Shown here piece by piece: positions 7,056 to 35,073 of a stretch of DNA of 64,000 nucleotides. The notes under the pieces were generated by a model that saw only the letters and a program-made list of their open reading frames with translations, was not told the origin of the DNA and made no database searches. This DNA is from an uncultured Pseudomonadota bacterium. GTDB lineage: Bacteria; Desulfobacterota; Binatia; Binatales; Binataceae. The position numbers and the translations under genes were made by a program. The stretch's first letter is position 1; the number at the start of each line of letters is the position of its first letter. Where the stretch lies: assembly GCA_963805995.1 (NCBI GenBank), contig CAWDWL010000007.1, forward strand, positions 544,931 to 608,930, given 5' to 3'.

Positions 7056-8159
7056 ATGGAAAACCTGCGCGTCATATCGGCCGATTCACACGTAGTGGAA
7101 CCAGCCAACTTATGGGAAACCCGGCTGGACAAAAACTTCCGTGATCAGGCGCCCAAGGTGGTCCGCACGGAAAAGGGGCTGTGGGTGATCACCGCTCCAG
7201 GAGGAATTTCGTTTCCCGCCGCCGCGATGTTCGCGGCCGGCAAGCGGGGCCAGGAATTGCGCGAGCACATGGGCAAGGGCTACGAAGCCAGCCGTCCCAG
7301 CGGATGGGATCCAAGCGAGCGGGCCAAGGACCAGGATATCGACGGCGTGTTGGCCGAGGTGCTGTACACCAGCAATGGCCTGCCGCTGTTCGGCCTCGAA
7401 GACGCCGAGCTCCAGTATGCCTGCTTCCGCGTCTTTAATGATTGGCTGGCGGAATACTGCGCGGCCAATCCCAAGCGCCTGATGGGCGTGGCCCTGATTT
7501 CCCTGCGCGACATCGCCACCGGGATTGCGGAGTTGGAGCGCTGCGCCAAAACGGGTTTGCGGGGTGCGATGATTTCCAACCATCCCCTTCAACCCTACGA
7601 CAGTCCGGTTTACAATCCGTTCTGGCAAGCCGCTTCCGAACTCGGAATGCCGATCTCGCTGCATATCATTACCAGCACCAAGAAGCAGAGCCTCGGCTCG
7701 TTTTCCGGCTCCAACACCACCACGCTGCAGATCGAGTACGTGTTCGAGACCCAATGCTGCCTGGCGCTGATGCTGATGGGCGGGGTGCTCGAGCGCTATC
7801 CGAACCTGCGGCTGGTTTCGACCGAGAACGATATTGGCTGGATGCCCTACTTCCTGCATCGCCTCGACCACAACTACGAGCTGGGCGCCGCGGCCCGCAA
7901 TCTACCGCCGCTTAAGCCCAGCGAATACGCCCGCCGTCAGCTATGGGCGACCTTCCAGGACGATCCCTGCGGCGTCGCGCTGTATAAGATGTTTGGGGAA
8001 GACAACTTTATGTGGGCGTCGGACTTTCCGCATTCCGATTCCACCTGGCCCCATTCGCAGGCCGTGATCGCGCAAAACTTCGCGTCGATCCCGCAGCCGG
8101 TGGTCCAGAAAATCGTCGCCGACAACGCTGCGCGGCTATACGGAATCGAGTTGAACTGA
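7056..8159 (+). CDS. Amidohydrolase-2 family metal-dependent hydrolase (ACMSD/PF04909-like)
   Basis: The N-terminal ISADSHVVEP motif and HxH...D pattern typical of the amidohydrolase_2 TIM-barrel family. AAAGGAGAAA RBS 7 nt upstream of the ATG. Confidence 0.85.
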   Translation: MENLRVISADSHVVEPANLWETRLDKNFRDQAPKVVRTEKGLWVITAPGGISFPAAAMFAAGKRGQELREHMGKGYEASRPSGWDPSERAKDQDIDGVLAEVLYTSNGLPLFGLEDAELQYACFRVFNDWLAEYCAANPKRLMGVALISLRDIATGIAELERCAKTGLRGAMISNHPLQPYDSPVYNPFWQAASELGMPISLHIITSTKKQSLGSFSGSNTTTLQIEYVFETQCCLALMLMGGVLERYPNLRLVSTENDIGWMPYFLHRLDHNYELGAAARNLPPLKPSEYARRQLWATFQDDPCGVALYKMFGEDNFMWASDFPHSDSTWPHSQAVIAQNFASIPQPVVQKIVADNAARLYGIELN

Positions 8160-8207: not shown

Positions 8208-8252
8208 TATATCTCGGTCCAGCTATTTGACGATGCACTGGAGGTGCCACGC

Positions 8253-9269
8253 ATGGCCGGCAGGATACAGTTCGGGCTCAACCTGGAATTCCGCAACCCG
8301 CAGCAGTTCTACCGCGACCCGGCCAAACTGTACGAAGATATCATCGAGCACACGGTGTGGGCCGAGGGCCTGGGCTACGACTACATCTTCCTGACCGAGC
8401 ATCATTTCACCCACGACGACTGGGCGCCGTCGCCGCTGATGCTGCTGAGCGCGATTGCCGCGCGCACCAAGCGCGTGCGCCTGAGCACCAGCATCATGCT
8501 GCTGCCCTTCTACCATCCGGTGCGGCTGGCTGAGGACGGCGCCGTGCTCGATATCATTTCGGGGGGCCGCTATGAGCTTGCCGCCGGCCTGGGCTATCGG
8601 CCCGAGGAGTTCGGCGGCTACGGCATGCAGTTGCTTTCACGCAGCCGGCGCGCCGACGAGATGCTGGAGATCATCCGCCGCCTGTGGGACGGCGAGACGG
8701 TCAACTTCAAGGGCAAGTTCTTCCAGGTTGACAACGTGCGCCTGAGCCCGCGGCCGGTGCAGCAGCCGCGGCCGCCGATCATGGTCGGCGGATACGCGCC
8801 CAACGCGGTCAAACGCGCCGCCCGGATGGGCGACGGATTGGTCGGTGTCACGCCGCAAACCTATGAGATCTATGTCGAAGAACTGCGCCGGCTGGGCAAG
8901 GATCCCGCTAAAGCCAGGGTAATCGGCGGCGGCGGAGCCTGGGTGTTCTGCTCCAACGAGCCCGAGCGGATGTGGAACGAGATGGCCCCCTACTGCATGC
9001 ATTCGGCCAACACCTACGCCAAGTGGATGGAGACCTGGAACACCCCGCCGGCCTATACCGCGGCGCGCGATATCGAGGAGTTCAGGAACAGCCGGCAACT
9101 GCGGATTGTCTCGCCGGAAAAGATGGTCGAATACGTGCGCAAGCAGGTGACGCTGAACCATTGCGACACCTGGTTCTTCATGGGCAACGAAGGCGGCGCC
9201 CCGATGTCGATCATGCGCGAGCATATCGAGCTGTTCGCGACCAAGGTGATGCCGCACTTTCAGCAGTAG
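8253..9269 (+). CDS. LLM-class flavin-dependent oxidoreductase (luciferase-like monooxygenase)
   Basis: The N-terminus FGLNLEF...EGLGYDYIFLTEHHF is the LLM family signature. ATG at 8253 with GGAGGTG 7 nt upstream. Confidence 0.85.
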   Translation: MAGRIQFGLNLEFRNPQQFYRDPAKLYEDIIEHTVWAEGLGYDYIFLTEHHFTHDDWAPSPLMLLSAIAARTKRVRLSTSIMLLPFYHPVRLAEDGAVLDIISGGRYELAAGLGYRPEEFGGYGMQLLSRSRRADEMLEIIRRLWDGETVNFKGKFFQVDNVRLSPRPVQQPRPPIMVGGYAPNAVKRAARMGDGLVGVTPQTYEIYVEELRRLGKDPAKARVIGGGGAWVFCSNEPERMWNEMAPYCMHSANTYAKWMETWNTPPAYTAARDIEEFRNSRQLRIVSPEKMVEYVRKQVTLNHCDTWFFMGNEGGAPMSIMREHIELFATKVMPHFQQ

Positions 9270-10230: not shown

Positions 10231-10481
10231 TACGTCTAGAAGTGCCGGGTGATTTTACGGGTCTCCACTTTGGCAATTGCGCTTCCTTTTGACTAATAAC
10301 CAACTTAAGAGCAAAATAGATGACAGCCCTCCGAAGTCAGAAGTCAATGTCGTCGAATGCACGACATCTGAGGGATCTGAAATTCGGTTTTCGGCTAGCT
10401 CGGAGCGGTCAAGCTGTTAGAGATCTTTGATTTATAGAAACTCTCATTGGCAGGCAAAAACGATTACTAGGAACAAGCTTC

Positions 10482-12576
10482 ATGGAAGCCACACCCACGC
10501 AAATTATTAACTATTTTAGCGGTTTCAAACAAAATTTAGTGCCGCTCTTTCAGCGTCCCTATACTTGGGCCGAACGTCAGTGGCGAACGTTGTGGGAGGA
10601 CATTTGTAGCTTTTACGGGCACGAGGAGAACGCCGGCAAAGCCACGCATTTCATGGGCGCTGTTGTTACCATGCCCGCCCGAAGCGTGCCAGTTGGTGTT
10701 TCAAAGTTCCTGGTCATAGATGGGCAGCAGCGGCTTACAACGATAGCGTTATTGCTGTGCGCCCTCCGCGATAACTTGTCCTCCACCGATGTCGTTCCGA
10801 AACGACGGATACAAGACTCATTACTTGACAAACGATGGATTCGAAGGATCTGATTTCTTTAAACTGTTGCCGACGCAAGGTGATCGGTTGGCCTATTCTC
10901 AATTGATTGAAAACTCGACCTCGACAATTCCGGATTCTCAATTCAAAAAGGCATACGATTTCTTTCGTCGTCGGCTCAGAAGCGAGGATGACGAAGGTAA
11001 TCCGCTTGATCCGAAGCGAATCCTAGAAATCATCGAGACTCGGTTGATGGTAGTAATGATCAACCTGAGCGACAATGACGATCCTTATCTGATTTTCGAA
11101 AGTCTCAACTTTAAAGGTTCACCTTTAGAACAGTCAGACCTCGTAAGGAATTATTTTCTAATGCGATTTCCCGTGACCGAGCAGCAGGGCGTTTATGACG
11201 ACCTATGGTTGCCGATGCAGAATCGACTCGGTCCGAGCTTGACGGAGTTTATGCGCCATTTTCTCGGTTCAGAAGGTGAGGAGGTTCGCAAAGGCGACGT
11301 ATACGCTGCTATAAAGCGCCTCACAGCAGATTCGGAACCGCCGTCGGTTCGCCTCCTCATGAGCCGAATGGAGCAATTGTCCACGTTCTACAGTCGAATT
11401 ACTACAACGGCGCCTGAACCTGACGAGAACATTAGCGAGTTTTTTGTCCGATTTCGTCGGCTTGACTTTGGAACCGCATACCCTCTTCTACTTTCGCTGT
11501 ACGAGGACTTCGTGGATGGTCAATTCGGAACGGAGGAATTCGTCGCTAGCCTAAGGATTCTCGATTCCTACATAATTAGGCGCATGGTGGTCGGAGTTCC
11601 ATCCAACTCCCTCGCCGGTATATTTATTTCATTATGCAAGAGTAAACCGATAACCGAGAGCCCGTCTGCCTGGCTCGCGACGGCTCTTAGCCAGGAGACA
11701 AAAAATCGTCGCTGGCCGATCGAAAAGGAGTTTTTTGACAACTGGGTGAATGGGCCGATATACGGTAGCCGAGCTTGTCAGGTAATTCTGGAATGTCTCG
11801 AGAAGCAGTGCGGACATCATGAGGCTGCCTCTCTCAGTGAGGCAAGTGTCGAGCACGTCCTTCCTCAGACTCTAACTCCCGAATGGGAGGAAGCACTTGG
11901 AGATAGGGCAGCCATTACCCATGACGAATGGCTTCACACCATAGGCAATCTTACACTAACCGGATACAACCCCGAACTCAGCAACAAGCCTTACTCAGAA
12001 AAAAGAAACATTCTTGCAATGAGCCATTTTGAGCTCAATAGGTTTTTCGGAAACTGTGAAGTTTGGGATGATTCAGAAATAAAAAAACGCGCAGAGTCCC
12101 TTTTCATAACGGCGCAACAGCTCTGGCAGCGTCCCTCCGAAGTGCTCGAGGAAGAGCCAACGGTACAGCGGTCCACAGCGGCGAATTTCCACGCCGATTG
12201 CATTCGATTAGCTCAGAAGCATCTGGGCGTCGTGTTATCAAAAGTTTCACAGACGCGCTATGAGGCAGGTGATAAAGAGACCCGACTCGTCTGCGCGGTC
12301 TCAGCAGAACATAACGAGAATGGAGGTATCCCCTACTTTTGGTTTGGCTTGCGTCGCAGTCAAGTGGAATTCTTGGAACAAGTGCCTTCCGCGTGGCTCT
12401 GCTTGGGTTGCGGATCGCCTGAACAGACCTTGCTAGTGCCTATTTTAGTCATAAGCCGCGCTCGTTTCCCAGATGAGTGTATCGATGGGAGAGAATCACC
12501 ATTATTGGCACGTTGTAGTCCAAAGAAGAAATGCGAAGTTCGTATTGCGTCTTCTGGGAGGCATGGATGGGCCTGA
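10482..12576 (+). CDS. GmrSD-family type IV (modification-dependent) restriction endonuclease, DUF262 (ParB-like NTPase) + DUF1524 (HNH-like) domains; the frame is interrupted near 10808-10825, so either a pseudogene or a sequencing indel
   Basis: ORF 10482..10853 carries the DUF262 motifs QRPYTW and DGQQRLTT. ORF 10789..12576, in the +1 frame, continues with the DUF262 YLxN...KLLPT region and later the DUF1524 EHVLPQ motif. The frames overlap, consistent with a single-base indel. Local GC is about 45% against about 65% in the flanks. Confidence 0.65.
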
Positions 12577-16195: not shown

Positions 16196-16710
16196 TTTCT
16201 ACGCTGTCCCCTCTCCCACATTTAATTGCGGGAGAGGGGACAGTTCTCCCAAAGCGAAAATAGAATATGTCCAGAGCACAAACGCATTGGTGCGGAGGCA
16301 ATTTCTATTTCCCCTCCTTATCCTGAGACTGTCGACAAACTCCTAAAACCTACCTCGGCGTGCGATTTGCGCCAGCAAGTCGCGTGACGGGCGAGGGTGC
16401 AGGCCCTGCCAGGAGGTGTCACGCAGGCAGAATCTCGCAGTGCGCCAATGCGTTTAGCCTACTTGAGGTGTATCAGAACCTTCACCCTCGCCCTCTCCCA
16501 CAACTGAATGTGGGCGAGGGAACAGAACCAAGCCGCCATTGCGCGACCGCGCTATCAAGCATCGTGGCTTTGCCCCTTAGTCGTTTATCGACAGTCTCTG
16601 TCCTCGCCCTAAAGCGAAAATAGTTTTGCGCCTTGAGTGCACGAACACATTGGCGCAGAGGCCATTTCTGTTCCCTCTCCTTATCCTAGGAGAGGGCGAG
16701 GGAGAGGTTA
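16196..16710. repeat. Repeat-rich intergenic block containing MITE-like element A plus nested short palindromes (CCCCTCTCCC / GGGAGAGGGG hairpins, duplicated AAAGCGAAAATAG...CGCATTGG...TTCCCYTCCTTATCCT subunits)
   Basis: Several inverted and tandem sub-repeats read directly. ORF 16360..16623 inside it is repeat-derived and not considered coding. Confidence 0.6.
16325..16600. mobile_element. MITE-like element, family A, copy 1 (about 275 bp) with 16-bp terminal inverted repeats GAGACTGTCGACAAAC ... GTTTATCGACAGTCTC
   Basis: Terminal inverted repeats read directly. About 93% identical, in inverted orientation, to 23357..23690. No transposase is encoded. Confidence 0.55.
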
Positions 16711-17170
16711 CACGCTCCGACCTTGATCCATGTTTCGCCCTCAGCCGAGGCATTTCGCCCCAGATTTTTTTCGCGCTTCAGGACGAAGTGCTTTGATCGG
16801 AAAATTTCAATATTTTGGTTAGGGTTGGAAGAGGGCGAGGAAGAGTTCGCACGCCCCGATATTCGCAACCGCCACGCGCGGTGAATTTCAAGGCCTCGAC
16901 CAGTGAGCTTTTCGATCCCAGCAAGGACAACAAAGGAAATAAGCGCAACTCCCATACGCGAGAAAAGTCTATTTCTCGTGGGCGGTGTCCCGCTGAAAGG
17001 ATCGGGATAGCGTCGCCGGTGCAGTGGACGTGGCCGGAATGGCAGGCGATGAGGTGGCACCGCAAGGCGCCCAGGTCTTCAACGAATTGCTCAAAAAGTA
17101 GGGTCCGCCCAGGAGAGTCCGGCCCGATCGTGTGGTGCTACATAAAGGCAAGGTCTAATTGTCTAATTCT

Positions 17171-18157
17171 ATGAACGACACAACGCCACCGCCCCCATCG
17201 CCTCAATACGAAACCTTGCGGCCGGCGACGGCCATCGCATCGCATCGAGTACTCACCGATAAGGTTGCCGAATACTGCAAGGCGCAGGCGGCCATTACGG
17301 ACACCGCGCGGAAATTCCCGGGATTCGTCGGCACCGAAGTCTTAAGCCCGATTCCCGGTCTTCAAGATGAGTGGGTCGCCATTTTCCGCCTCGAATCCAA
17401 TGAGGCGATGAAACGCTGGCTCGCGGCGCCCGAACGCACCAGGCTGGCCGAACGAATCGAGCAGTACCTCACCGAACCGTCGCACCTGTTGATCCTCGCC
17501 AGTGACGAGCGCACCGAAGCGCCAGTCGCGATGGTCTTCACCCATCGTGTCCCCGAGGGCAGGGTGCCGGATTACCTCGCCTGGAGGCGCAAGGCGATTG
17601 CCGCTCAAGCACACGTTCCCGGCTATCTGGCGACTGAATTTTTCGAACCTCGGGCCAAGGGTCAGGAGGAGTGGGTCGACATCGTACGCTACGATTCCGT
17701 GGAGCATCTGGACGCCTGGATGGAGTCGCAAGAACGGGCCGGTCTCCTGGAGGAACTCAAGCAGATAGTCGAGAGTATGCACTCACATCGAGTAACCGGA
17801 CTGGAAGGATGGTTCGCCGTCAATCGCGGACCCGGCGCGCCGGCCGTTGCGCCGCCGCCGTGGAAACAAGCATTCTCGGTGCTGCTCGCGCTGTATCCCA
17901 CGGTGATGCTGCTTGGCGTGGCCACCAATCCCCTGATGAACGGACTGAGTCTTTCGCTCCAAATGCTGATCGGGAATACACTCTCAGTCGCCCTGTTGAC
18001 CTGGCTAATCATGCCCCGCGTTTCCCGATGGTTGAGTTTCTGGCTCGACCTCCCGGCCGGTGTTCCGTCTTCCGATAAATGGAGGCGGGAAGCGCTCGGC
18101 GTCGGCACCGTCCTGGCACTACTTGCAGCGTTCGTGGGGGTATTTGGGCTGCTATGA
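17171..18157 (+). CDS. Membrane protein with two tandem ABM (antibiotic-biosynthesis-monooxygenase / Dabb-like) domains and C-terminal transmembrane helices
   Basis: Two repeated segments of about 100 aa (..FVGTEVLSP...EWVAIFRLESNEAMKRWL.. and ..GYLATEFFEP...EWVDIVRYDSVEHLDAWM..) followed by 3 predicted TM helices. The ATG at 17171 is preferred over the track's TTG at 17159. Confidence 0.65.
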   Translation: MNDTTPPPPSPQYETLRPATAIASHRVLTDKVAEYCKAQAAITDTARKFPGFVGTEVLSPIPGLQDEWVAIFRLESNEAMKRWLAAPERTRLAERIEQYLTEPSHLLILASDERTEAPVAMVFTHRVPEGRVPDYLAWRRKAIAAQAHVPGYLATEFFEPRAKGQEEWVDIVRYDSVEHLDAWMESQERAGLLEELKQIVESMHSHRVTGLEGWFAVNRGPGAPAVAPPPWKQAFSVLLALYPTVMLLGVATNPLMNGLSLSLQMLIGNTLSVALLTWLIMPRVSRWLSFWLDLPAGVPSSDKWRREALGVGTVLALLAAFVGVFGLL

Positions 18158-18198: not shown

Positions 18199-19518
18199 TC
18201 AGGGCTGGTTTCCGGCCAGACGCGGTCCGATAAACGGTATCTTGCCGATTGCCGCCCGGATTGCGGACTTGATTGCGTGTCCGATTCGATGCAGCAGGAG
18301 TTCGAGTTTGCCCCACGCGATCCGGAACAGGCCGCCGCGATCAATCCCTCTTTGCGTCTCAATCGGCACGCTCAGCAGGGTGCGATCGTCCTCATGGACG
18401 GTGAGACTTCCGACTTTGGTGCCCATCGGGACCGGGGCGACCAGGTAGTTGACGTCCAGGCCTCCGGTGAGTTTGATCTTCTTTTCATCGCCCTTGGGCA
18501 AAGTGATCGTGACCGGTCCGGGCGGAGCCAGCGCGACGATGGAATCCACTCCTTCGTAAACCGGCAGCGAGGCCGGAACCAGCGGGCGCCAATCCGGCGT
18601 AACGTTGACGAAGGAGCGGAACGCCCATGCCAACAGCTTTTCGGTTTCCGTCCGGCGCTTCTCGGCATTGGGCGCGCCCATCAATGCGGAAACCAGACGC
18701 ATATTGTCGGCGTGAGCGGTTGCGACCAGATGAAACCCGGCTTCATCGACGTGGCCGGTCTTCATTCCGTCAACCCGCGCATCGTAAAGCAGCAGGGTGT
18801 TCCAGTTGCGCTGGGTGATCTGATGGAAGGTAAATTCCTTCGCTGAGGTGTACTCCAGGGAATTGGGAAACTGTTTCATCACCAGGGTTGCCAACTTTAC
18901 CATGTCGGACGCCGTGGTGTATTGGTCCGGTTCGGGCAGGCCGTCGGGACTGGCAAAACGGGTCTCGTTCAGGCCCAGGCGATGACAGTAGTCGTTCATC
19001 ATCACCACGAAGCCTTCTTCGCTGCCACCCAAATATTCGGCCAGGGCCATCGCCGCGTCATTGCCCGATGACACCATCAAACCGTAGAGCAGCTGTTTGA
19101 CCGGGACCTGCTGGCCGACCTCTAGAAACATCTTCGACACCGTCTGGTCCACGGACAGCCGCCACGCTTTCTCGCTGATGTTCACCGACGTATCGAGCGT
19201 CAGCTTGCTGTTCTTGAGCGCTTCCAAGGTAATGTAGAAGGTCATTATCTTGGCCAGGCTCGCGGGCTGGATGCGCAGGTGCTCGTTGTACGCATAGAGC
19301 ACCTCGCCGGAGTGGAACTCGGTCAGCATCGCCGCCCGCGCGTCGAGCGCAAACGGCGCCGGATTATTGCCGAGAACTCGAATCTGGTTAAGTGGCTCGA
19401 TTGGAGGCGGCGCCGACGCCATGGCGTGGTGCCTGGCGGCACTCGCGACCGAAAAGGTCCCGAGTAAAATCGCCCCCATAACCCAAATCAACTTCCACCG
19501 CTTGCATGCCCAAGGCAT
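18199..19518 (-). CDS. D-alanyl-D-alanine carboxypeptidase (serine-type, peptidase S11, PBP5/6-like)
   Basis: A signal peptide, then SLAKIMT (the S11 SxxK active-site motif) and the SGN and KTG motifs. GAGGGG RBS upstream of the ATG at 19518. Confidence 0.85.
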   Translation of the reverse strand: MPWACKRWKLIWVMGAILLGTFSVASAARHHAMASAPPPIEPLNQIRVLGNNPAPFALDARAAMLTEFHSGEVLYAYNEHLRIQPASLAKIMTFYITLEALKNSKLTLDTSVNISEKAWRLSVDQTVSKMFLEVGQQVPVKQLLYGLMVSSGNDAAMALAEYLGGSEEGFVVMMNDYCHRLGLNETRFASPDGLPEPDQYTTASDMVKLATLVMKQFPNSLEYTSAKEFTFHQITQRNWNTLLLYDARVDGMKTGHVDEAGFHLVATAHADNMRLVSALMGAPNAEKRRTETEKLLAWAFRSFVNVTPDWRPLVPASLPVYEGVDSIVALAPPGPVTITLPKGDEKKIKLTGGLDVNYLVAPVPMGTKVGSLTVHEDDRTLLSVPIETQRGIDRGGLFRIAWGKLELLLHRIGHAIKSAIRAAIGKIPFIGPRLAGNQP

Positions 19519-19726
19519 AGAGCACCGCCCCTCACGTCCCGCTTAACTAGACATTAGAACCCCGATGACGCGGCGGCAAGCGGCGTGGCAAACACTTGGT
19601 AACAAGCCGGGAATTCCACTGCGTCCACCGGTGCGCCAGTCGCCAAATCGGGTCCACTAGGGATGGTTCGAACTCAACCGAGTCCGACCCCGTAACCCTG
19701 CGGGATCAGCTAAGCACATTGGGACC

Positions 19727-19745
19727 GCTGGCACGAAGGATGCTT
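19727..19745 (+). promoter_or_regulatory. Putative sigma-54 (RpoN) promoter: TGGCACG-aagg-ATGCT (consensus TGGCACG-N4-TTGCW)
   Basis: The GG-N10-GC spacing is exact, with a single mismatch in the -12 element. It lies about 115 nt upstream of ORF 19862. A sigma-54 activator gene is 1.6 kb downstream on the same strand. Confidence 0.45.
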
Positions 19746-19861
19746 CTCAGAAGCCATGGAAATTGGAATGAAGCAAAAGGGCCCCATAGGGCGCAGAAAT
19801 ATGACGCGACTGTGGCCGATTAGGGAGCAATTCCCCGTTTCAATGCCACAAAGGGGATGAA

Positions 19862-20251
19862 ATGGCTATGGAGAGTCCCTCCAGGCAATTTGAAGACAGC
19901 AGCCAGACTTGGGCTGCGGGCAGCAATCTTTTGGCCCCGGATTGTCTGCTGCCGGTTCAATACAATGATCTGATACGAAAGCGCCACGTGCTTGAGGGGG
20001 AAGTTAAGCTGATGATGGCGGTTTTGAAGGACGCAATCCGCGCCTACATCAGGGACATGGACGGACGCACCCCGCAGGCACGGCGCAATTTCCAGGAAAC
20101 TTATCGATGGGTCCATGCCGCAGATCAGGACGGGGTCTTTGCCTACGACAATGTCTGTGACACCTTGGGACTGGAACCCGGCCTGCTGCGCCGATGGCTC
20201 AAATCGCTACACGACGTCGAATTGGCTCTACCGCGCGCCACAGGACGTTGA
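19862..20251 (+). CDS. Hypothetical protein (129 aa), unknown function
   Basis: An ATG with AGGGGA 5 nt upstream. The codon usage matches its neighbours and it sits downstream of the putative sigma-54 promoter. I recognise no family. Confidence 0.5.
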   Translation: MAMESPSRQFEDSSQTWAAGSNLLAPDCLLPVQYNDLIRKRHVLEGEVKLMMAVLKDAIRAYIRDMDGRTPQARRNFQETYRWVHAADQDGVFAYDNVCDTLGLEPGLLRRWLKSLHDVELALPRATGR

Positions 20252-20344
20252 ACCGCTGCTCGCTCCCACCAAGCTCGGCCGATGCGGTTGGCCATCAATC
20301 CGCGCGCTTGGTGGAGTGCGTAAAACGGTGTCTGCGTGGACCGT

Positions 20345-20462
20345 CCAAGGTTTGGTGGTTGCGCGCCTGCGGGAAAGATGGCTTCACTCATACATCTTCT
20401 CTCCTTCTCGGAGAGATAAGTGTGAGGCAGCAGGCAGTGAAAAGGCGGAAATCCTTTTTCCG
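20345..20462. repeat. MITE-like element, family B, copy 1 (5'-truncated); hairpin core TCTTCTCTCC..GGAGAGATAAG and right terminus GGCGGAAATCCTTTTTCCGC
   Basis: About 80-85% identical to 34921..35067 over about 115 bp, read directly. Confidence 0.55.
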
Positions 20463-20764
20463 CGATCTGCCAGGGCCGCCGCTCGCTCCGCTGGCGATGC
20501 TCGCGGGCGTTGGCCCAACAATCAGAGGCGCTAAAACCCAGCCTTTAGACCCACGGAGGCGTCCGGCGGCATCCCGATGACACCGTCGCTCTGTTCCGTA
20601 CCGTCGAGCTGAATCCCGACATTACCGGATAGAACCGGAAGCCCCAAATCCCAGGTCCGAGAGGTCTTGCGGAATCCGCCGACTTCGGCAATATGGTTAT
20701 TTGGCAGAGGGTCGGTCTTCAGACGTCGGGAAGGCCTGATCCGCGCAGTAACGGTTGGGAGGGT

Positions 20765-21370
20765 ATGCTGGTGGGACGTTCTACCCTTGGAGACGCGGGA
20801 GATCAGTCAACTGCCGTACGCGCAGAAGCTTTCAGTCGCAGGCGGTTGCTCAAATGGGGGTCCTTGATAGCGGGTTCCACGCTGGTGCCAGGCGCGGCAT
20901 TCGCTGCTCTGCGCGTGCCCTATCCGCCCGACCGCTCGCTCAGGTTCTACAACCTGCATACCGGTGAGAGCCTCAACACGGTTTACTGCGAGAATGGCCG
21001 TTACATCCCCGGCGCTCTGAGCCAGGTTAACTACATCCTGCGCGATTTCCGGGCCAACGAGATCAAAGCAATCGATCCGCGGCTGCTCGACCTGCTGTAT
21101 TCACTCAATCGCCGGCTTTATACGCAACAACCCTTCGAGATCATCTCCGGCTACCGCTCGCCGGCAACCAACGCAATGCTGGCCGCGCGCAGCGAGGGAG
21201 TGGCTCGCCACAGTCTGCATATCGAAGGCAAGGCCGCCGATATTCGGGTGCCGGACCGGGGATTGCGGGAAGTATGGCGCGCGGCGATGGACATGTGGAG
21301 CGGGGGCGTCGGCTTCTATCCGCGGTCCGACTTCGTCCACGTGGATGTTGGCCGTCCCCGTTTCTGGTAA
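20765..21370 (+). CDS. DUF882 domain protein (YcbK-like, peptidase M15 superfamily) with twin-arginine signal
   Basis: The ATG at 20765 has GGGAGGG 3 nt upstream. The Tat-like signal SRRRLLKWGSLIAGSTLVPGAAFA is followed by the conserved DUF882 core (..SGYRSPATNAML..HSLHIEGKAADI..). Confidence 0.8.
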   Translation: MLVGRSTLGDAGDQSTAVRAEAFSRRRLLKWGSLIAGSTLVPGAAFAALRVPYPPDRSLRFYNLHTGESLNTVYCENGRYIPGALSQVNYILRDFRANEIKAIDPRLLDLLYSLNRRLYTQQPFEIISGYRSPATNAMLAARSEGVARHSLHIEGKAADIRVPDRGLREVWRAAMDMWSGGVGFYPRSDFVHVDVGRPRFW

Positions 21371-21464
21371 GCGCCAAAAGACCGGTATCAGCGCACAACG
21401 CCCGGGGGGAGACGCATCACGCCGCCCTTTTTTAGCGCTGGATTTTGGCGTAAGATCGCCGGAT

Positions 21465-23114
21465 ATGCCCGACATCGGCCGTCCGCGCGCAATCAACGAT
21501 GCCAGAACTGCCGCGAATTCAACGGCCGGATTCCAGTCCTGTCCGGATTCCAAACCCGGTCCGGATTCCAAACCCGGTAAGGACATGCCTGATACCCCTG
21601 GCACTCACCGATTACACTCCGACAGCCCCGCTTATTTTCATTTGCTGTGGGATCACGAACTGGACAGCCTCGCCCCGATTCTGGACTCAATCCTGAGCCG
21701 GCGCGAACAGGTCCTGGCCCACTGGCATCGGCTCTATATCCTGCATTTCGGCGATTCACGCTCACTTTCCGACCGCGAGTTCATGGAGATCTTCGGCGCG
21801 GATCTGGCGGCGACCGTCGGTGACCTGCGGGCCAAGGACGTCAATAAATTCACCGCCGACGTACGTCGGATCGGCGAAGCGCTGGCGGAGCGCCGGGTGC
21901 CGTTCTCGGAGGTCGTGGTCTCGATGCATCTGTTCGAGGAAAGCGCCACCGGTGCCTTCCCGAGCTTTCCGCCCCCGATGCCCAAGATTTACCTCGCATT
22001 CGATAAACTCAGCCATTGCCGGATGATCGTCCTGGCCGACGCCTTTTTCCGTTCGACCGCGGCGGTCGCCAACGCCCGGATCCGTGATCTTGAACGGGAG
22101 GCCTCCCTGTTGCCACGCCAGGCCCGCAGCCGCTTTCATGGCCTCGTTGGGGCCAACCCCGCAATGCGCCAGTTGTATGACCGCGTTGAAGCGGCCGCCA
22201 GGACCCGCGGCACGATTCTGATCGTGGGAGAAAGCGGCACCGGCAAGGAACTGGTGGCCCGGGCGATTCACGAGGTTTCCGGCGAGGTCCGCGCTCCGTT
22301 CGTCGCACTTAACTGTGCGGCGATCCCGCGTGAGCTCATCGAAAGCGAGTTGTTCGGCTACAAGCGCGGCGCGTTCAGTGGCGCCAACGCCGAGCATCTG
22401 GGGCTGTTTCGCTCCGCGGAGGGCGGCACCCTGTTTCTGGACGAAATCACCGAGATGAGCCCTGAAACGCAGACCAAGTTGTTGCGCGTTCTTCAGGAAC
22501 GATCGGTGCGCCCGGTCGGCGGCACCCACGAAATCCCGATCGATGCGCGGGTCGTCGCCACGACCAATCGCGAACCCACCGACGCGGTGCGGACTGGCCA
22601 GCTTCGTTCCGACCTCTATTACCGGCTGCAAGCCAATGTGCTGCGAATCCCGCCGCTAAGAGAGCGTTTGGACGACGTGCCCTTGCTGATCGAGCACTTC
22701 ATCAACGTCTTTAATGAGCGGCTCAAGCGCCCGATTCCGGTAATCGGCATCTCGGAAGATGCGATGGCGGCGATGCAAAACTACGAATGGCCGGGCAACG
22801 TGCGCGAATTGTCCAACTCGATCGAAGGCGCATTTACCTTCGGGCGTTCCGCGAGCATAACACTGGCGGATCTGCCGCCGCAGTTGGCTGGTGCGTACCA
22901 CTCGGAGCCGGCTGCCGCTCAAAGCGCCCCCCCGGAGCCTCCAACCGGATCCGCCCCCGAAGCGGCCAAGGTGCAGAGCTTTGCCGACGTGGAGCGGGAA
23001 CTGATCCGCCGCGCCCTCGAGAACACCGAAGGAAACAAGGTGCAAGCCGCCAAGTTGCTGCGTATTTCGCGCAAGAAGCTTTACGCGAAGATCGAAAAAT
23101 ACGGCCTTACTTGA
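21465..23114 (+). CDS. Sigma-54-dependent transcriptional activator (bacterial enhancer-binding protein; N-terminal sensory domain + AAA+ sigma-54 interaction domain + C-terminal Fis-type HTH)
   Basis: The AAA+ domain carries GESGTGKELVARAIH and the GAFTGA-like sequence ...ESELFGYKRGAFSGA. The C-terminal HTH is KVQAAKLLRISRKKLY. The start is uncertain: 21345 overlaps the upstream gene, and 21465 or 21585 are both possible ATGs with weak RBS. Confidence 0.85.
   Translation: MPDIGRPRAINDARTAANSTAGFQSCPDSKPGPDSKPGKDMPDTPGTHRLHSDSPAYFHLLWDHELDSLAPILDSILSRREQVLAHWHRLYILHFGDSRSLSDREFMEIFGADLAATVGDLRAKDVNKFTADVRRIGEALAERRVPFSEVVVSMHLFEESATGAFPSFPPPMPKIYLAFDKLSHCRMIVLADAFFRSTAAVANARIRDLEREASLLPRQARSRFHGLVGANPAMRQLYDRVEAAARTRGTILIVGESGTGKELVARAIHEVSGEVRAPFVALNCAAIPRELIESELFGYKRGAFSGANAEHLGLFRSAEGGTLFLDEITEMSPETQTKLLRVLQERSVRPVGGTHEIPIDARVVATTNREPTDAVRTGQLRSDLYYRLQANVLRIPPLRERLDDVPLLIEHFINVFNERLKRPIPVIGISEDAMAAMQNYEWPGNVRELSNSIEGAFTFGRSASITLADLPPQLAGAYHSEPAAAQSAPPEPPTGSAPEAAKVQSFADVERELIRRALENTEGNKVQAAKLLRISRKKLYAKIEKYGLT
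21523..21585 (+). repeat. Tandem repeat, about 3 x 18 bp (CCGGATTCCAAACCCGGT), at the 5' end or leader of the sigma-54 activator gene
   Basis: Read directly. If translated it encodes PDSKPG repeats. Confidence 0.7.
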
Positions 23115-23356
23115 AGCGCCAGCGGCTCAGTTCTCGCTCTCCGGCGGCAGCTCCGCGCCCAACGCCAGGCACATGAAGGCGTCGAGCACGTCGCTGCGGG
23201 TCAGCATCCCTACGCGATTGCGCTCGAACCACCACCTCCCGCCGAATCTACGACGGATGAAACACTAGCCGAGACAGTCGGAAATGTCCTTATGCTGGAT
23301 CCGACGGGCCGCAGGACTTAGCGGACTTCAATTTCTTCTTCCTCCGCTCTCCGCGC

Positions 23357-23690
23357 GAGACTGTCGATAAACGACTAAAGGGCAAAGCCAGGTGCTTGGT
23401 AGCGCGGTCGCGCAATGGTGGCTTGGTTCTGTTCCCTCGCCCACATTCAGTTGTGGGAGAGGGCTGAGGGTGAGGGTTCTGATACACCTCAAGTAGGATA
23501 AACGCATTGGCGCACTGCGAGATTCTGCCTGCGTGACACCTCCTTGCAGGGCCGCCTGCACCCTCACCCGTCACGCGACTTGCTGGCGCAAATCGCGTGA
23601 CGACCTCTCCCGGCATGCGCCTGCGGCACCCGAGTCCGCAGCCGCGGGCGAGGTAGGTTTAGGAGTTTATCGACAGTTTCCGCGCGGAAG
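23357..23690. mobile_element. MITE-like element, family A, copy 2 (about 333 bp), inverted relative to copy 1, with terminal inverted repeats GAGACTGTCGATAAAC ... TTTATCGACAGTTTC
   Basis: Its reverse complement aligns with 16325..16600 at about 93% identity, with one insertion of about 55 bp. ORF 23290..23616 within it is repeat-derived. Confidence 0.55.
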
Positions 23691-34920: not shown

Positions 34921-35067
34921 GCGGGAAAAAGGAGTTTCGTGCTCAACCCAGCGTTTGGTGGCTGCGCACCCTGCATGAAAGGTGGCCTCATTCCTACATC
35001 TTCTCTCCCCCTTGGGAGAGAAGAAGAGTGAGGGGGCAGGCCGAAGAAGCGGAAATCCTTTTTCCGC
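34921..35067. mobile_element. MITE-like element, family B, copy 2 (complete, about 147 bp): terminal inverted repeats GCGGGAAAAAGGAGTTTC ... GAAATCCTTTTTCCGC and a perfect palindrome TCTTCTCTCCCCCTTGGGAGAGAAGA
   Basis: Terminal inverted repeats and the palindrome read directly. It overlaps the 3' end of the M23 peptidase ORF. Confidence 0.6.
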
Positions 35068-35073
35068 AGCCCG

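Follow-up and report, generated by a model that had tools for sequence, protein, structure and literature searches.

A putative sigma-54 promoter class of a small-protein family, and the apparent remnant of a sigma-54 cluster, at a Binatia cell-wall locus

Activators and promoters are what define a sigma-54 regulon, and Binatia are an abundant, uncultured soil lineage. Here we analyze a 64,000-nucleotide stretch of DNA from this lineage (contig CAWDWL010000007.1 of assembly GCA_963805995.1; hereafter the window), which has 60.6% G+C and whose nearest named relatives are Candidatus Binataceae metagenome-assembled genomes. It contains a sigma-54 (RpoN) promoter motif, P1, upstream of a gene for a 129-residue protein (the small gene), followed on the same strand by the remnant of a YkuD L,D-transpeptidase gene (ykuD), the peptidase gene mepK and the gene of a sigma-54 enhancer-binding protein (the activator); the D-Ala-D-Ala carboxypeptidase gene dacC is divergent from the small gene. 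Sigma-54 promoters, enhancer-binding proteins, MepK, DacC and YkuD are known kinds, found here as a new instance in an uncultured lineage. What is new is the small-protein family with its statistical tie to sigma-54 promoters, an ancestral three-promoter cluster with a candidate enhancer, and the protoglobin-like sensor of the activator. A full-text search of the literature found no paper mentioning Binatia together with sigma-54.

The closest described counterpart of the cell-wall genes is the ldtD (ycbB)-mepK (ycbK) pair of E. coli, which, with DacA/DacC, is under the Cpx envelope-stress response. MepK is a zinc enzyme, exported by the twin-arginine translocation (Tat) pathway, that cleaves 3-3 cross-links between two meso-diaminopimelate residues (mDAP-mDAP; PMC8262268), and L,D-transpeptidases require tetrapeptide donors from DD-carboxypeptidases (PMC12729407). 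The Binatia locus resembles this pathway in that a YkuD-family gene stands beside the gene for a Tat-exported MepK, with an S11 DD-carboxypeptidase alongside. It differs in that the transpeptidase of the relatives has 330 residues, is LdtE-like rather than LdtD, and is a pseudogene in the window; moreover, a sigma-54 promoter rather than CpxR is found next door, and the Binatia set is known from genes alone. Comparative work has led to the proposal that sigma-54 is linked to the cell exterior (PMC3162934).

The activator is most readily compared with one-component enhancer-binding proteins of the NtrC/NifA class, such as those of the Desulfovibrio regulons (PMC4641369). It shares with them the AAA+ domain, the GAFSGA loop and the Fis-type helix-turn-helix (HTH), and in its relatives tandem palindromes lie between divergent sigma-54 promoters. 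Unlike these proteins, its sensor scores below threshold for every named family, and the presumed enhancer and both target promoters have been deleted from the window. The sensor recalls globin-coupled sensors (Protoglobin, PF11563) and the non-haem globin N-domain of RsbR, in that paralogues of the activator give full-length, sub-threshold alignments and there are invariant His residues; however, all scores are below 25, the window's own domain gives no Protoglobin hit, and haem binding is putative. The 129-residue protein is weakly similar, in its last two helices, to small HTH proteins (Pfam HTH_Tnp_1 and HTH_28; homeodomain/XRE-like tri-helical folds).

The promoter P1 and the small-protein family

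The small gene occupies positions 19862–20251 of the plus strand. Its ATG is preceded, at a distance of 118 nucleotides, by P1 (19729–19744, plus strand; TGGCACGAAGGATGCT, read as TGGCACG-AAGG-ATGCT). Sigma-54 motifs were scored over the 12 specified positions of TGGCACG-N4-TTGCW, with GG-N10-GC spacing and cut-offs of at least 10/12 or at least 11/12. P1 matches 11 of the 12, with one mismatch and the exact spacing; a first-pass annotation, made earlier by a model from the same DNA, had described it in these terms, and the description is correct. P1 is the only site with at most one mismatch on either strand of the window. Its significance within the window is another matter: in shuffled versions of the window the mean number of such sites is 0.81, and at least one turns up in 55 of 100 shuffles. 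Judged on the window alone, the motif is not significant.

Comparison with related loci gives a different picture. Orthologous loci were fetched in three ways, with the small protein, with the N-terminal domain of the activator and by a metagenome scan. Ten distinct loci contain the small gene: the window, L001, L004, L005, L006, L007, L011, L012, L104 and L113. In all ten, a motif of at least 10/12 lies upstream of the small gene in the right orientation, 35–120 nucleotides from the start codon. The four-nucleotide spacer inside the motif differs among loci (GAAG, GCTG, GATG, GGTC, ACTC, GATC and GCTC), and the remaining intergenic DNA has diverged. Because the motif is kept in 10/10 loci while its flanks diverge, we accept P1 as real; the phylogenetic footprint argues that it is a genuine sigma-54 promoter. 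Each orthologous locus has one strong sigma-54 motif, and no second, between dacC and the end of the activator gene, and a search of these loci for a further sigma-54 promoter before mepK or the activator gene found none. The first-pass annotation had taken the small gene, mepK and the activator gene for a unit whose co-occurrence could be checked. The three are indeed together in the ten loci, but L013, L014 and L018 lack the small gene. These three loci also lack a sigma-54 motif before mepK, and they keep mepK and the activator gene. This distribution ties P1 to the small gene rather than to mepK or the activator.

Upstream of P1, k-mer enumeration across the orthologous loci for a shared enhancer recovered only the dacC promoter blocks and no motif common to all loci. 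The P1 leader had no match in Rfam. No RpoN box was found in the 64-kb window, and the presence of rpoN in the genome is inferred from the activator gene. A match to TGGCAC-N6-TGC (TGGCACCTCCAGTGCA, 8235–8249, minus strand) is antisense, between the plus-strand open reading frames at 7056–8159 and 8244–9269, and is most likely due to chance. A palindrome, CTTGGTAACAAG, lies at 19590–19610, between the dacC promoter and P1 and about 130–150 nucleotides upstream of P1. It is confined to the clade of the window, with equivalents in L001, L005 and L104, and is perfect in L104, where it reads CTTGTTAACAAG. L011 and L006 contain another palindrome, GATGTGCACAAC, placed nearer P1. Either palindrome could be a clade-specific regulator site.

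The small open reading frame is a real gene under purifying selection, with a ratio of nonsynonymous to synonymous substitution rates (dN/dS) of about 0.3 against both L001 and L004. Its product is all-helical and belongs to no Pfam family. A word-index search found nine close relatives, and a profile search of 1.84 billion cluster representatives yielded 4987 proteins at E ≤ 1e-3 and 1029 at E ≤ 1e-10. Seventy diverse members of this family had no match in Pfam, NCBIfam or PHROGs. Searches found nothing among PDB sequences and, by tblastn, no match in plasmids or phages; no domain fusions were found in the longer members. All source labels of the members encountered read 'hypothetical protein'. 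A contig scan seeded with the alignment of orthologues of the small protein found nothing, and the 70-member alignment was too diverse for seeding a scan. The family is mostly basic, with a median isoelectric point (pI) of 9.4. The last two predicted helices (residues 95–102 and 106–122) form a pair that matches HTH_Tnp_1 and HTH_28 weakly, at E 0.05 for the window protein and 0.006–0.01 for two relatives, and the top Foldseek matches of the protein are XRE and homeodomain proteins. From these features we infer that the family is probably DNA-binding and regulatory.

A further 80 metagenome loci were picked only for encoding a family member, and 71 of the family genes in them have at least 200 nucleotides of upstream sequence. 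A sigma-54 motif of at least 10/12 lies within 350 nucleotides upstream of 29 of these 71 genes; the remainder of these loci would predict 1.15. At the stricter cut-off (at least 11/12), 11 of the 71 have a motif and 0.2 are expected. Family genes in unrelated loci are thus enriched 25- to 55-fold for the motif in their upstream DNA. The distance from the motif to the start of the conserved domain is stereotyped, with a median of about 115 nucleotides. The paralogues in L008 and L009, beside a cytochrome oxidase cluster, have TGGCACACTCGATGCT 45 nucleotides before the ATG. Neighbours of the family genes are varied: a DUF155/RMND1-like gene is upstream in 10 of 34 loci, a PNPOx-like gene is downstream and convergent in 7 of 31, and the downstream neighbour is on the opposite strand in 21 of 37. 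Activator genes are not enriched beside family genes, being found in 4 of the 34 loci of at least 5 kb. These counts indicate that the sigma-54 promoter belongs to the small-protein family and not to the locus. A conserved class of sigma-54 promoter on so large a family offers a handle for naming the family and approaching its function. The DNA upstream of the family promoters differs between subgroups, and different activators would therefore serve them. Among L091–L170 we also observed subgroup-specific palindromes upstream of these promoters, for example GATGCCG...CGGCATC in L130 and L158.

The activator and the promoters beyond it

The activator gene lies at 21585–23114 on the plus strand, with an alternative start at 21465. 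The protein contains Sigma54_activat (PF00158, 1e-65), AAA_lid_14 (5e-25) and HTH_8 (1e-12), and its loop reads GAFSGA, a variant regarded as active (PMC4641369). It reaches no NCBIfam equivalog at its cut-off. The protoglobin-like sensor, encoded at about 21624–22142, is followed by the AAA+ domain and by the Fis-type HTH at about 22980–23102. Roughly 180 N-terminal residues belong to no Pfam family, which bears out the first-pass description of a sigma-54 activator with an unassigned N-terminal region. The gene is intact and constrained (dN/dS 0.13), and this argues for a continuing function of the activator in this genome. Its 5' region contains an exact 18-nucleotide tandem duplication (GTCCGGATTCCAAACCCG twice, 21541–21576). 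The start used in L001 (MPEVPQIQR...) corresponds to the ATG at 21499 of the window. That ATG is not in the activator's reading frame, which leaves 21465 or 21585 as the start of the window protein; PAYFHLLWD is the first stretch of the conserved domain.

Paralogues that share the N-terminal domain form a family found across Binatia, with 124 confirmed loci in one-genome-per-species data and often several per genome. Only those N-terminal domains that are at least 83% identical to the window's adjoin mepK. Nine of 39 relatives align with Protoglobin over its full length (profile positions 13–155 of 158), at a sub-threshold 13.6–21.5 bits against the gathering cut-off of 25. A profile of the N-terminal domain reaches the RsbR-like PDB chain 7o0i_B at E 0.22. 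The family has invariant His residues, as well as Trp and Tyr in the first long helix. A globin-coupled-sensor fold is plausible on these grounds.

In the relatives, sigma-54 motifs are also present on the far side of the activator gene. Eight loci keep that side (L001, L004, L007, L011–L014 and L018), and in all eight P4 (TGGCACG-N4-GTCGCT, plus strand) precedes a Usp-CBS gene. P3 (TGGCAGA-N4-CTTGCT, minus strand) precedes a CBS gene in the seven loci that keep this gene; L007, the remaining one, has P4 and the palindromes described below and no CBS gene. In L001 the divergent P3–P4 region spans 10354–10556, directly downstream of the activator gene. Two 17-bp palindromes with the consensus TGTATCC-N3-GGATACA, 41–44 bp apart, are found 122–188 bp upstream of P4 in 8/8 loci. 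Paralogous activators show the same side preference: a motif of at least 11/12 lies within 1.5 kb downstream in 28 of 63 loci versus upstream in 7 of 63. The paired palindromes are most likely the enhancer of the activator, a candidate put forward on position and conservation, with CBS and Usp-CBS as its likeliest targets. An activator gene next to its enhancer and its targets is the classical arrangement. We suggest that in these relatives the activator would be a one-component enhancer-binding protein with a protoglobin-like sensor, acting through the paired palindromes at P3 and P4. CBS and Usp-CBS would then form a clean candidate regulon, responsive to stress or possibly to oxygen. The activator family thus offers for study a protoglobin-like sensor, a candidate enhancer and Usp/CBS targets.

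In the window and in L005 this side is missing. The last 43 codons of the CBS gene remain in the window at 23130–23255 (minus strand), where tblastn with the L001 CBS protein finds 79% identity over residues 108–150; the rest of the CBS gene, the palindromes, P4 and the Usp-CBS gene are gone. Across the 64-kb window, a position weight matrix (PWM) of the palindrome finds no site of at least 10 bits. Where synteny breaks off after the CBS remnant lies an element resembling a miniature inverted-repeat transposable element (MITE; 23357–23680, with 23-nucleotide terminal inverted repeats). The window thus appears to hold the decayed remnant of a three-promoter sigma-54 cluster, whose CBS/Usp side was deleted next to this MITE-like element. 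A broader proposal is that the 129-residue family (about 5000 clusters at 50% identity, centred on Binatia and related soil bacteria) would be widespread, hitherto undescribed and a common output of many different sigma-54 regulons; it could bind DNA or an activator, being produced each time an enhancer-binding protein fires, and feed back on or relay sigma-54-dependent transcription. Separately, its neighbour here would be the first globin-coupled sigma-54 activator, a sensor of O2, NO or redox state for Usp/CBS. We put both parts forward as speculation that is unlikely to be right as it stands.

Cell-wall genes, transcription units and the service of P1

The cell-wall genes flank the small gene on both sides. 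The dacC-like gene (18199–19518, minus strand) encodes a 439-residue S11 D-Ala-D-Ala carboxypeptidase (Peptidase_S11, 7e-77, with PBP5_C) and is divergent from the small gene, in agreement with the first-pass annotation. The protein falls below the NCBIfam equivalog cut-offs for DacA, DacC and DacD. The gene is syntenic in at least 10 orthologous loci, with dN/dS of 0.07–0.14. A candidate sigma-70-like promoter for dacC lies at 19551–19579 of the minus strand (TTGCCG, a 17-nucleotide spacer and TAATGT), the hexamers having been assigned by eye. In all orthologous loci, the promoter and ribosome-binding-site (RBS) blocks of dacC and P1 are the only conserved parts of the region between dacC and the small gene.

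Downstream of the small gene, tblastn with the intact YkuD of L001 identifies the remnant of a YkuD L,D-transpeptidase gene at 20549–20867 (plus strand). In its translation the N-terminus is gone, and the C-terminal third, residues ~199–330, is left in two frames. The catalytic THGC has become THGG, the Cys being replaced by Gly, and there is an in-frame stop. An intact ykuD of 325–330 codons lies between the small gene and mepK in L001–L004, L011, L113 and L120, and L104 has its 5' end, cut by the end of the contig. L007 and L012 have the small gene and no ykuD, and L013, L014 and L018 have neither. The near-identical L005 (4105–6606), the closest relative, carries a different, larger deletion at the position of ykuD, which ends exactly at the P2 block described below and leaves that block in place. 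L005 is a noisy assembly, and we do not read its indels as biology, apart from this large deletion. Its dacC is split in two and its small gene is frameshifted, giving a 201-residue artefact (P0009).

The next gene, mepK (20765–21370, plus strand), belongs to DUF882/Peptidase_M15_2 (Pfam E 4e-53); its best start is the ATG at 20765, behind the RBS GGGAGGG. The protein scores 207.8 bits against the NCBIfam equivalog PtglEndpepMepK (NF053624), for which the cut-off is 185. A twin-arginine signal can be read directly in SRRRLLKWGSLIAGSTLVPGAAFA: FSRRRLLKWG, a hydrophobic stretch and then AFA. The dN/dS is 0.07–0.18. The DUF882 protein can therefore be classed, by sequence, as a MepK orthologue with a Tat signal and a predicted peptidoglycan L,D-endopeptidase, in keeping with the Tat-secreted DUF882 peptidase first proposed here, with export predicted. 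In L001 the start chosen by the gene caller (168 residues) removes the Tat signal; the correct one, preceded by GGGAGG, is some 30 codons further upstream. Where ykuD is intact, the end of its reading frame runs about 100 nucleotides into the start of mepK in a different frame, and ykuD also includes the P2 block (L001, 7382–7553).

P2 is a sigma-70-like block, CTTGCGGAATCC...GGCAATATGGTT, at 20666–20698 on the plus strand, about 70–100 nucleotides before the mepK start, to which we ascribe a putative promoter role. In the form CTTGCGGAaTCC...GGCAAtATGgTT it is common to 11/11 orthologous loci, whether it lies inside the ykuD coding sequence or ykuD is absent. An ATG within P2 was considered as a longer mepK start and rejected on direct reading, its frame being inconsistent with mepK between loci. 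Because the frame of this ATG varies relative to mepK, the block is not MepK-coding. Downstream of it, mepK is invariably paired with the activator gene in the orthologous loci.

The gene set is coherent: since L,D-transpeptidases need donors from DD-carboxypeptidases, dacC, ykuD and mepK together make up a 3-3 cross-link set. By analogy with E. coli, in the ancestral set the tetrapeptide donors would come from DacC, the 3-3 links from YkuD and their cleavage from the Tat-exported MepK. The first-pass annotation had gone further and proposed cell-wall remodelling under sigma-54 control. Its gene content stands, but dacC and mepK have sigma-70-like blocks of their own and ykuD is dead. The cell-wall genes would accordingly not form one sigma-54 operon; going by the conserved blocks, a separate sigma-70-like promoter would serve dacC, and P2 precedes mepK and the activator gene. 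In the relatives ykuD could be co-transcribed from P1, because it is the only one of these genes directly behind the small gene. An ancestral L,D-transpeptidase behind a sigma-54 promoter, beside MepK and DacC, would bring 3-3 cross-linking within the proposed connection of sigma-54 to the cell exterior (PMC3162934). The label of a self-contained module does not hold: the mepK-activator pair persists without the small gene and P1 and has its own P2 block, and the P3/P4 side that belonged to the cluster has been deleted here. Adjacency had led to an over-call of a 'dedicated' module, when both the likeliest targets of the activator and the transpeptidase have been lost from the window.

We consider it somewhat more probable than otherwise that P1 is a private, family-typical, RpoN-dependent promoter of the small gene, and that mepK and the activator gene are transcribed from P2. 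Family genes would have such promoters in many unrelated contexts, often as monocistronic units, and ykuD, in relatives the sole cell-wall gene that could be served directly from P1, is dead in the window. P1 itself may be served by the neighbouring activator through a weak downstream site, or by another of the genome's activators. Several observations weigh against this reading. The firing of P1, P2, P3 and P4 is deduced from sequence, and the palindromes were assigned to the activator purely by adjacency and conservation. The −10 hexamer of P2 is poor, and a generic consensus scan did not call it. Neither an intrinsic terminator nor a terminator-like hairpin was found between the small gene and mepK, and transcripts from P1 could thus run on into mepK and the activator gene. 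The purifying selection on the activator, whose presumed targets are gone, hints at other targets. Finally, single look-alikes of the palindrome occur downstream of P1 in L007 (+125), L012 (+105) and L113 (+117), at 12.6–12.8 bits (empirical p 0.003–0.005), with weaker ones in L004, L104 and the window (19768–19784, 8.7 bits, p 0.025); because of these sites the neighbouring activator could still act on P1. The look-alikes are related by shared descent and not independent, and they are located in the variable 5' part of the gene. Nothing convincing is found downstream of P1 in L001 (best 6.4 bits, p 0.07), L006 or L011.

A rival is the arrangement first proposed, in which the adjacent activator is dedicated to P1, the small gene, ykuD where present, mepK and the activator gene form one transcript driven by P1, and 3-3 remodelling would be sigma-54-controlled and positively autoregulated, with the small protein as partner of the activator. 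The small and activator genes are on the same strand, 1.3–2.3 kb apart, in 10/10 loci with the small gene, and no terminator-like hairpin was found between them. Desulfovibrio has documented enhancer sites downstream of promoters (PMC4641369), a precedent for the palindrome-like sites after P1, and some paralogous small genes are also near activator genes (L008, L009, L043, L091, L119 and L160). However, the P2 block precedes mepK in every locus compared, the mepK-activator pair survives in L013, L014 and L018 without the small gene or P1, and upstream of P1 the palindrome PWM scores at chance level in 9/10 loci. The strong paired palindromes and two sigma-54 promoters stand instead on the other side of the activator in 8/8 loci, the family promoters are mostly far from activator genes, and the ykuD behind P1 in the window is a pseudogene. 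We therefore regard an activator dedicated to P1 as possible but doubtful. A further arrangement has P1 real and served by a distant activator, with the small protein as a second-tier transcription factor acting on the dacC promoter or P2, so that the sigma-54 input to the cell wall would be indirect. The basic character and weakly HTH-like helices of the family agree with such a role, as do the position of CTTGGTAACAAG between the dacC promoter and P1 and the synteny of the small gene with dacC and mepK in 10 loci; it seems to us improbable nonetheless. That the motif is a mere chance match, and the open reading frame transcribed from an ordinary promoter, would fit the number of near-matches expected in a sequence of this composition. 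The conservation of the motif between diverged flanks in 10/10 loci and its enrichment upstream of family genes elsewhere argue so strongly to the contrary that these comparative data effectively refute it. The private, family-typical P1 is thus the arrangement we favour.

Repeats and neighbouring features

The first-pass annotation placed a MITE between the small gene and mepK, at 20252–20764. This interval is mostly the ykuD remnant plus a 125-nucleotide repeat, and the clear MITE-like elements lie elsewhere, at 16325–16598 and 23357–23680. The 125-nucleotide repeat (~20345–20470) has one other copy in the window, at 34955–35070, with 81% identity. No terminal inverted repeats were detected in it, and it had no match in Rfam. 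Read on the minus strand, it contains a hairpin, GCGGAAAAAGGATTTCCGC, followed by the RBS-like GGAGAGAAGATG; its second copy is flanked by two minus-strand genes. The near-identical L005 lacks the stretch at ~20345–20470. The repeat may be a small mobile element, or else serve as a leader or terminator cassette.

The two MITE-like copies are 275–325 nucleotides long and 92–97% complementary; they are inverted relative to each other, and each has terminal inverted repeats of 22–23 nucleotides (GAGACTGTCGAyAAAC...). The copies bracket a 6.8-kb block that extends from a gene for an ABM-domain protein to the CBS remnant. L005 has both copies. The other orthologous loci do not contain the full element; a 44-nucleotide fragment (86% identity) is present in L004.

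The ABM-domain (Pfam) protein has 332 residues, is encoded at 17159–18157 and is confined to the lineage of the window and L005. Its orthologue in L005 additionally has a Y2318_C tail. The gene lies between an ADC-like gene and dacC; in L001, the ADC-like gene directly adjoins dacC.

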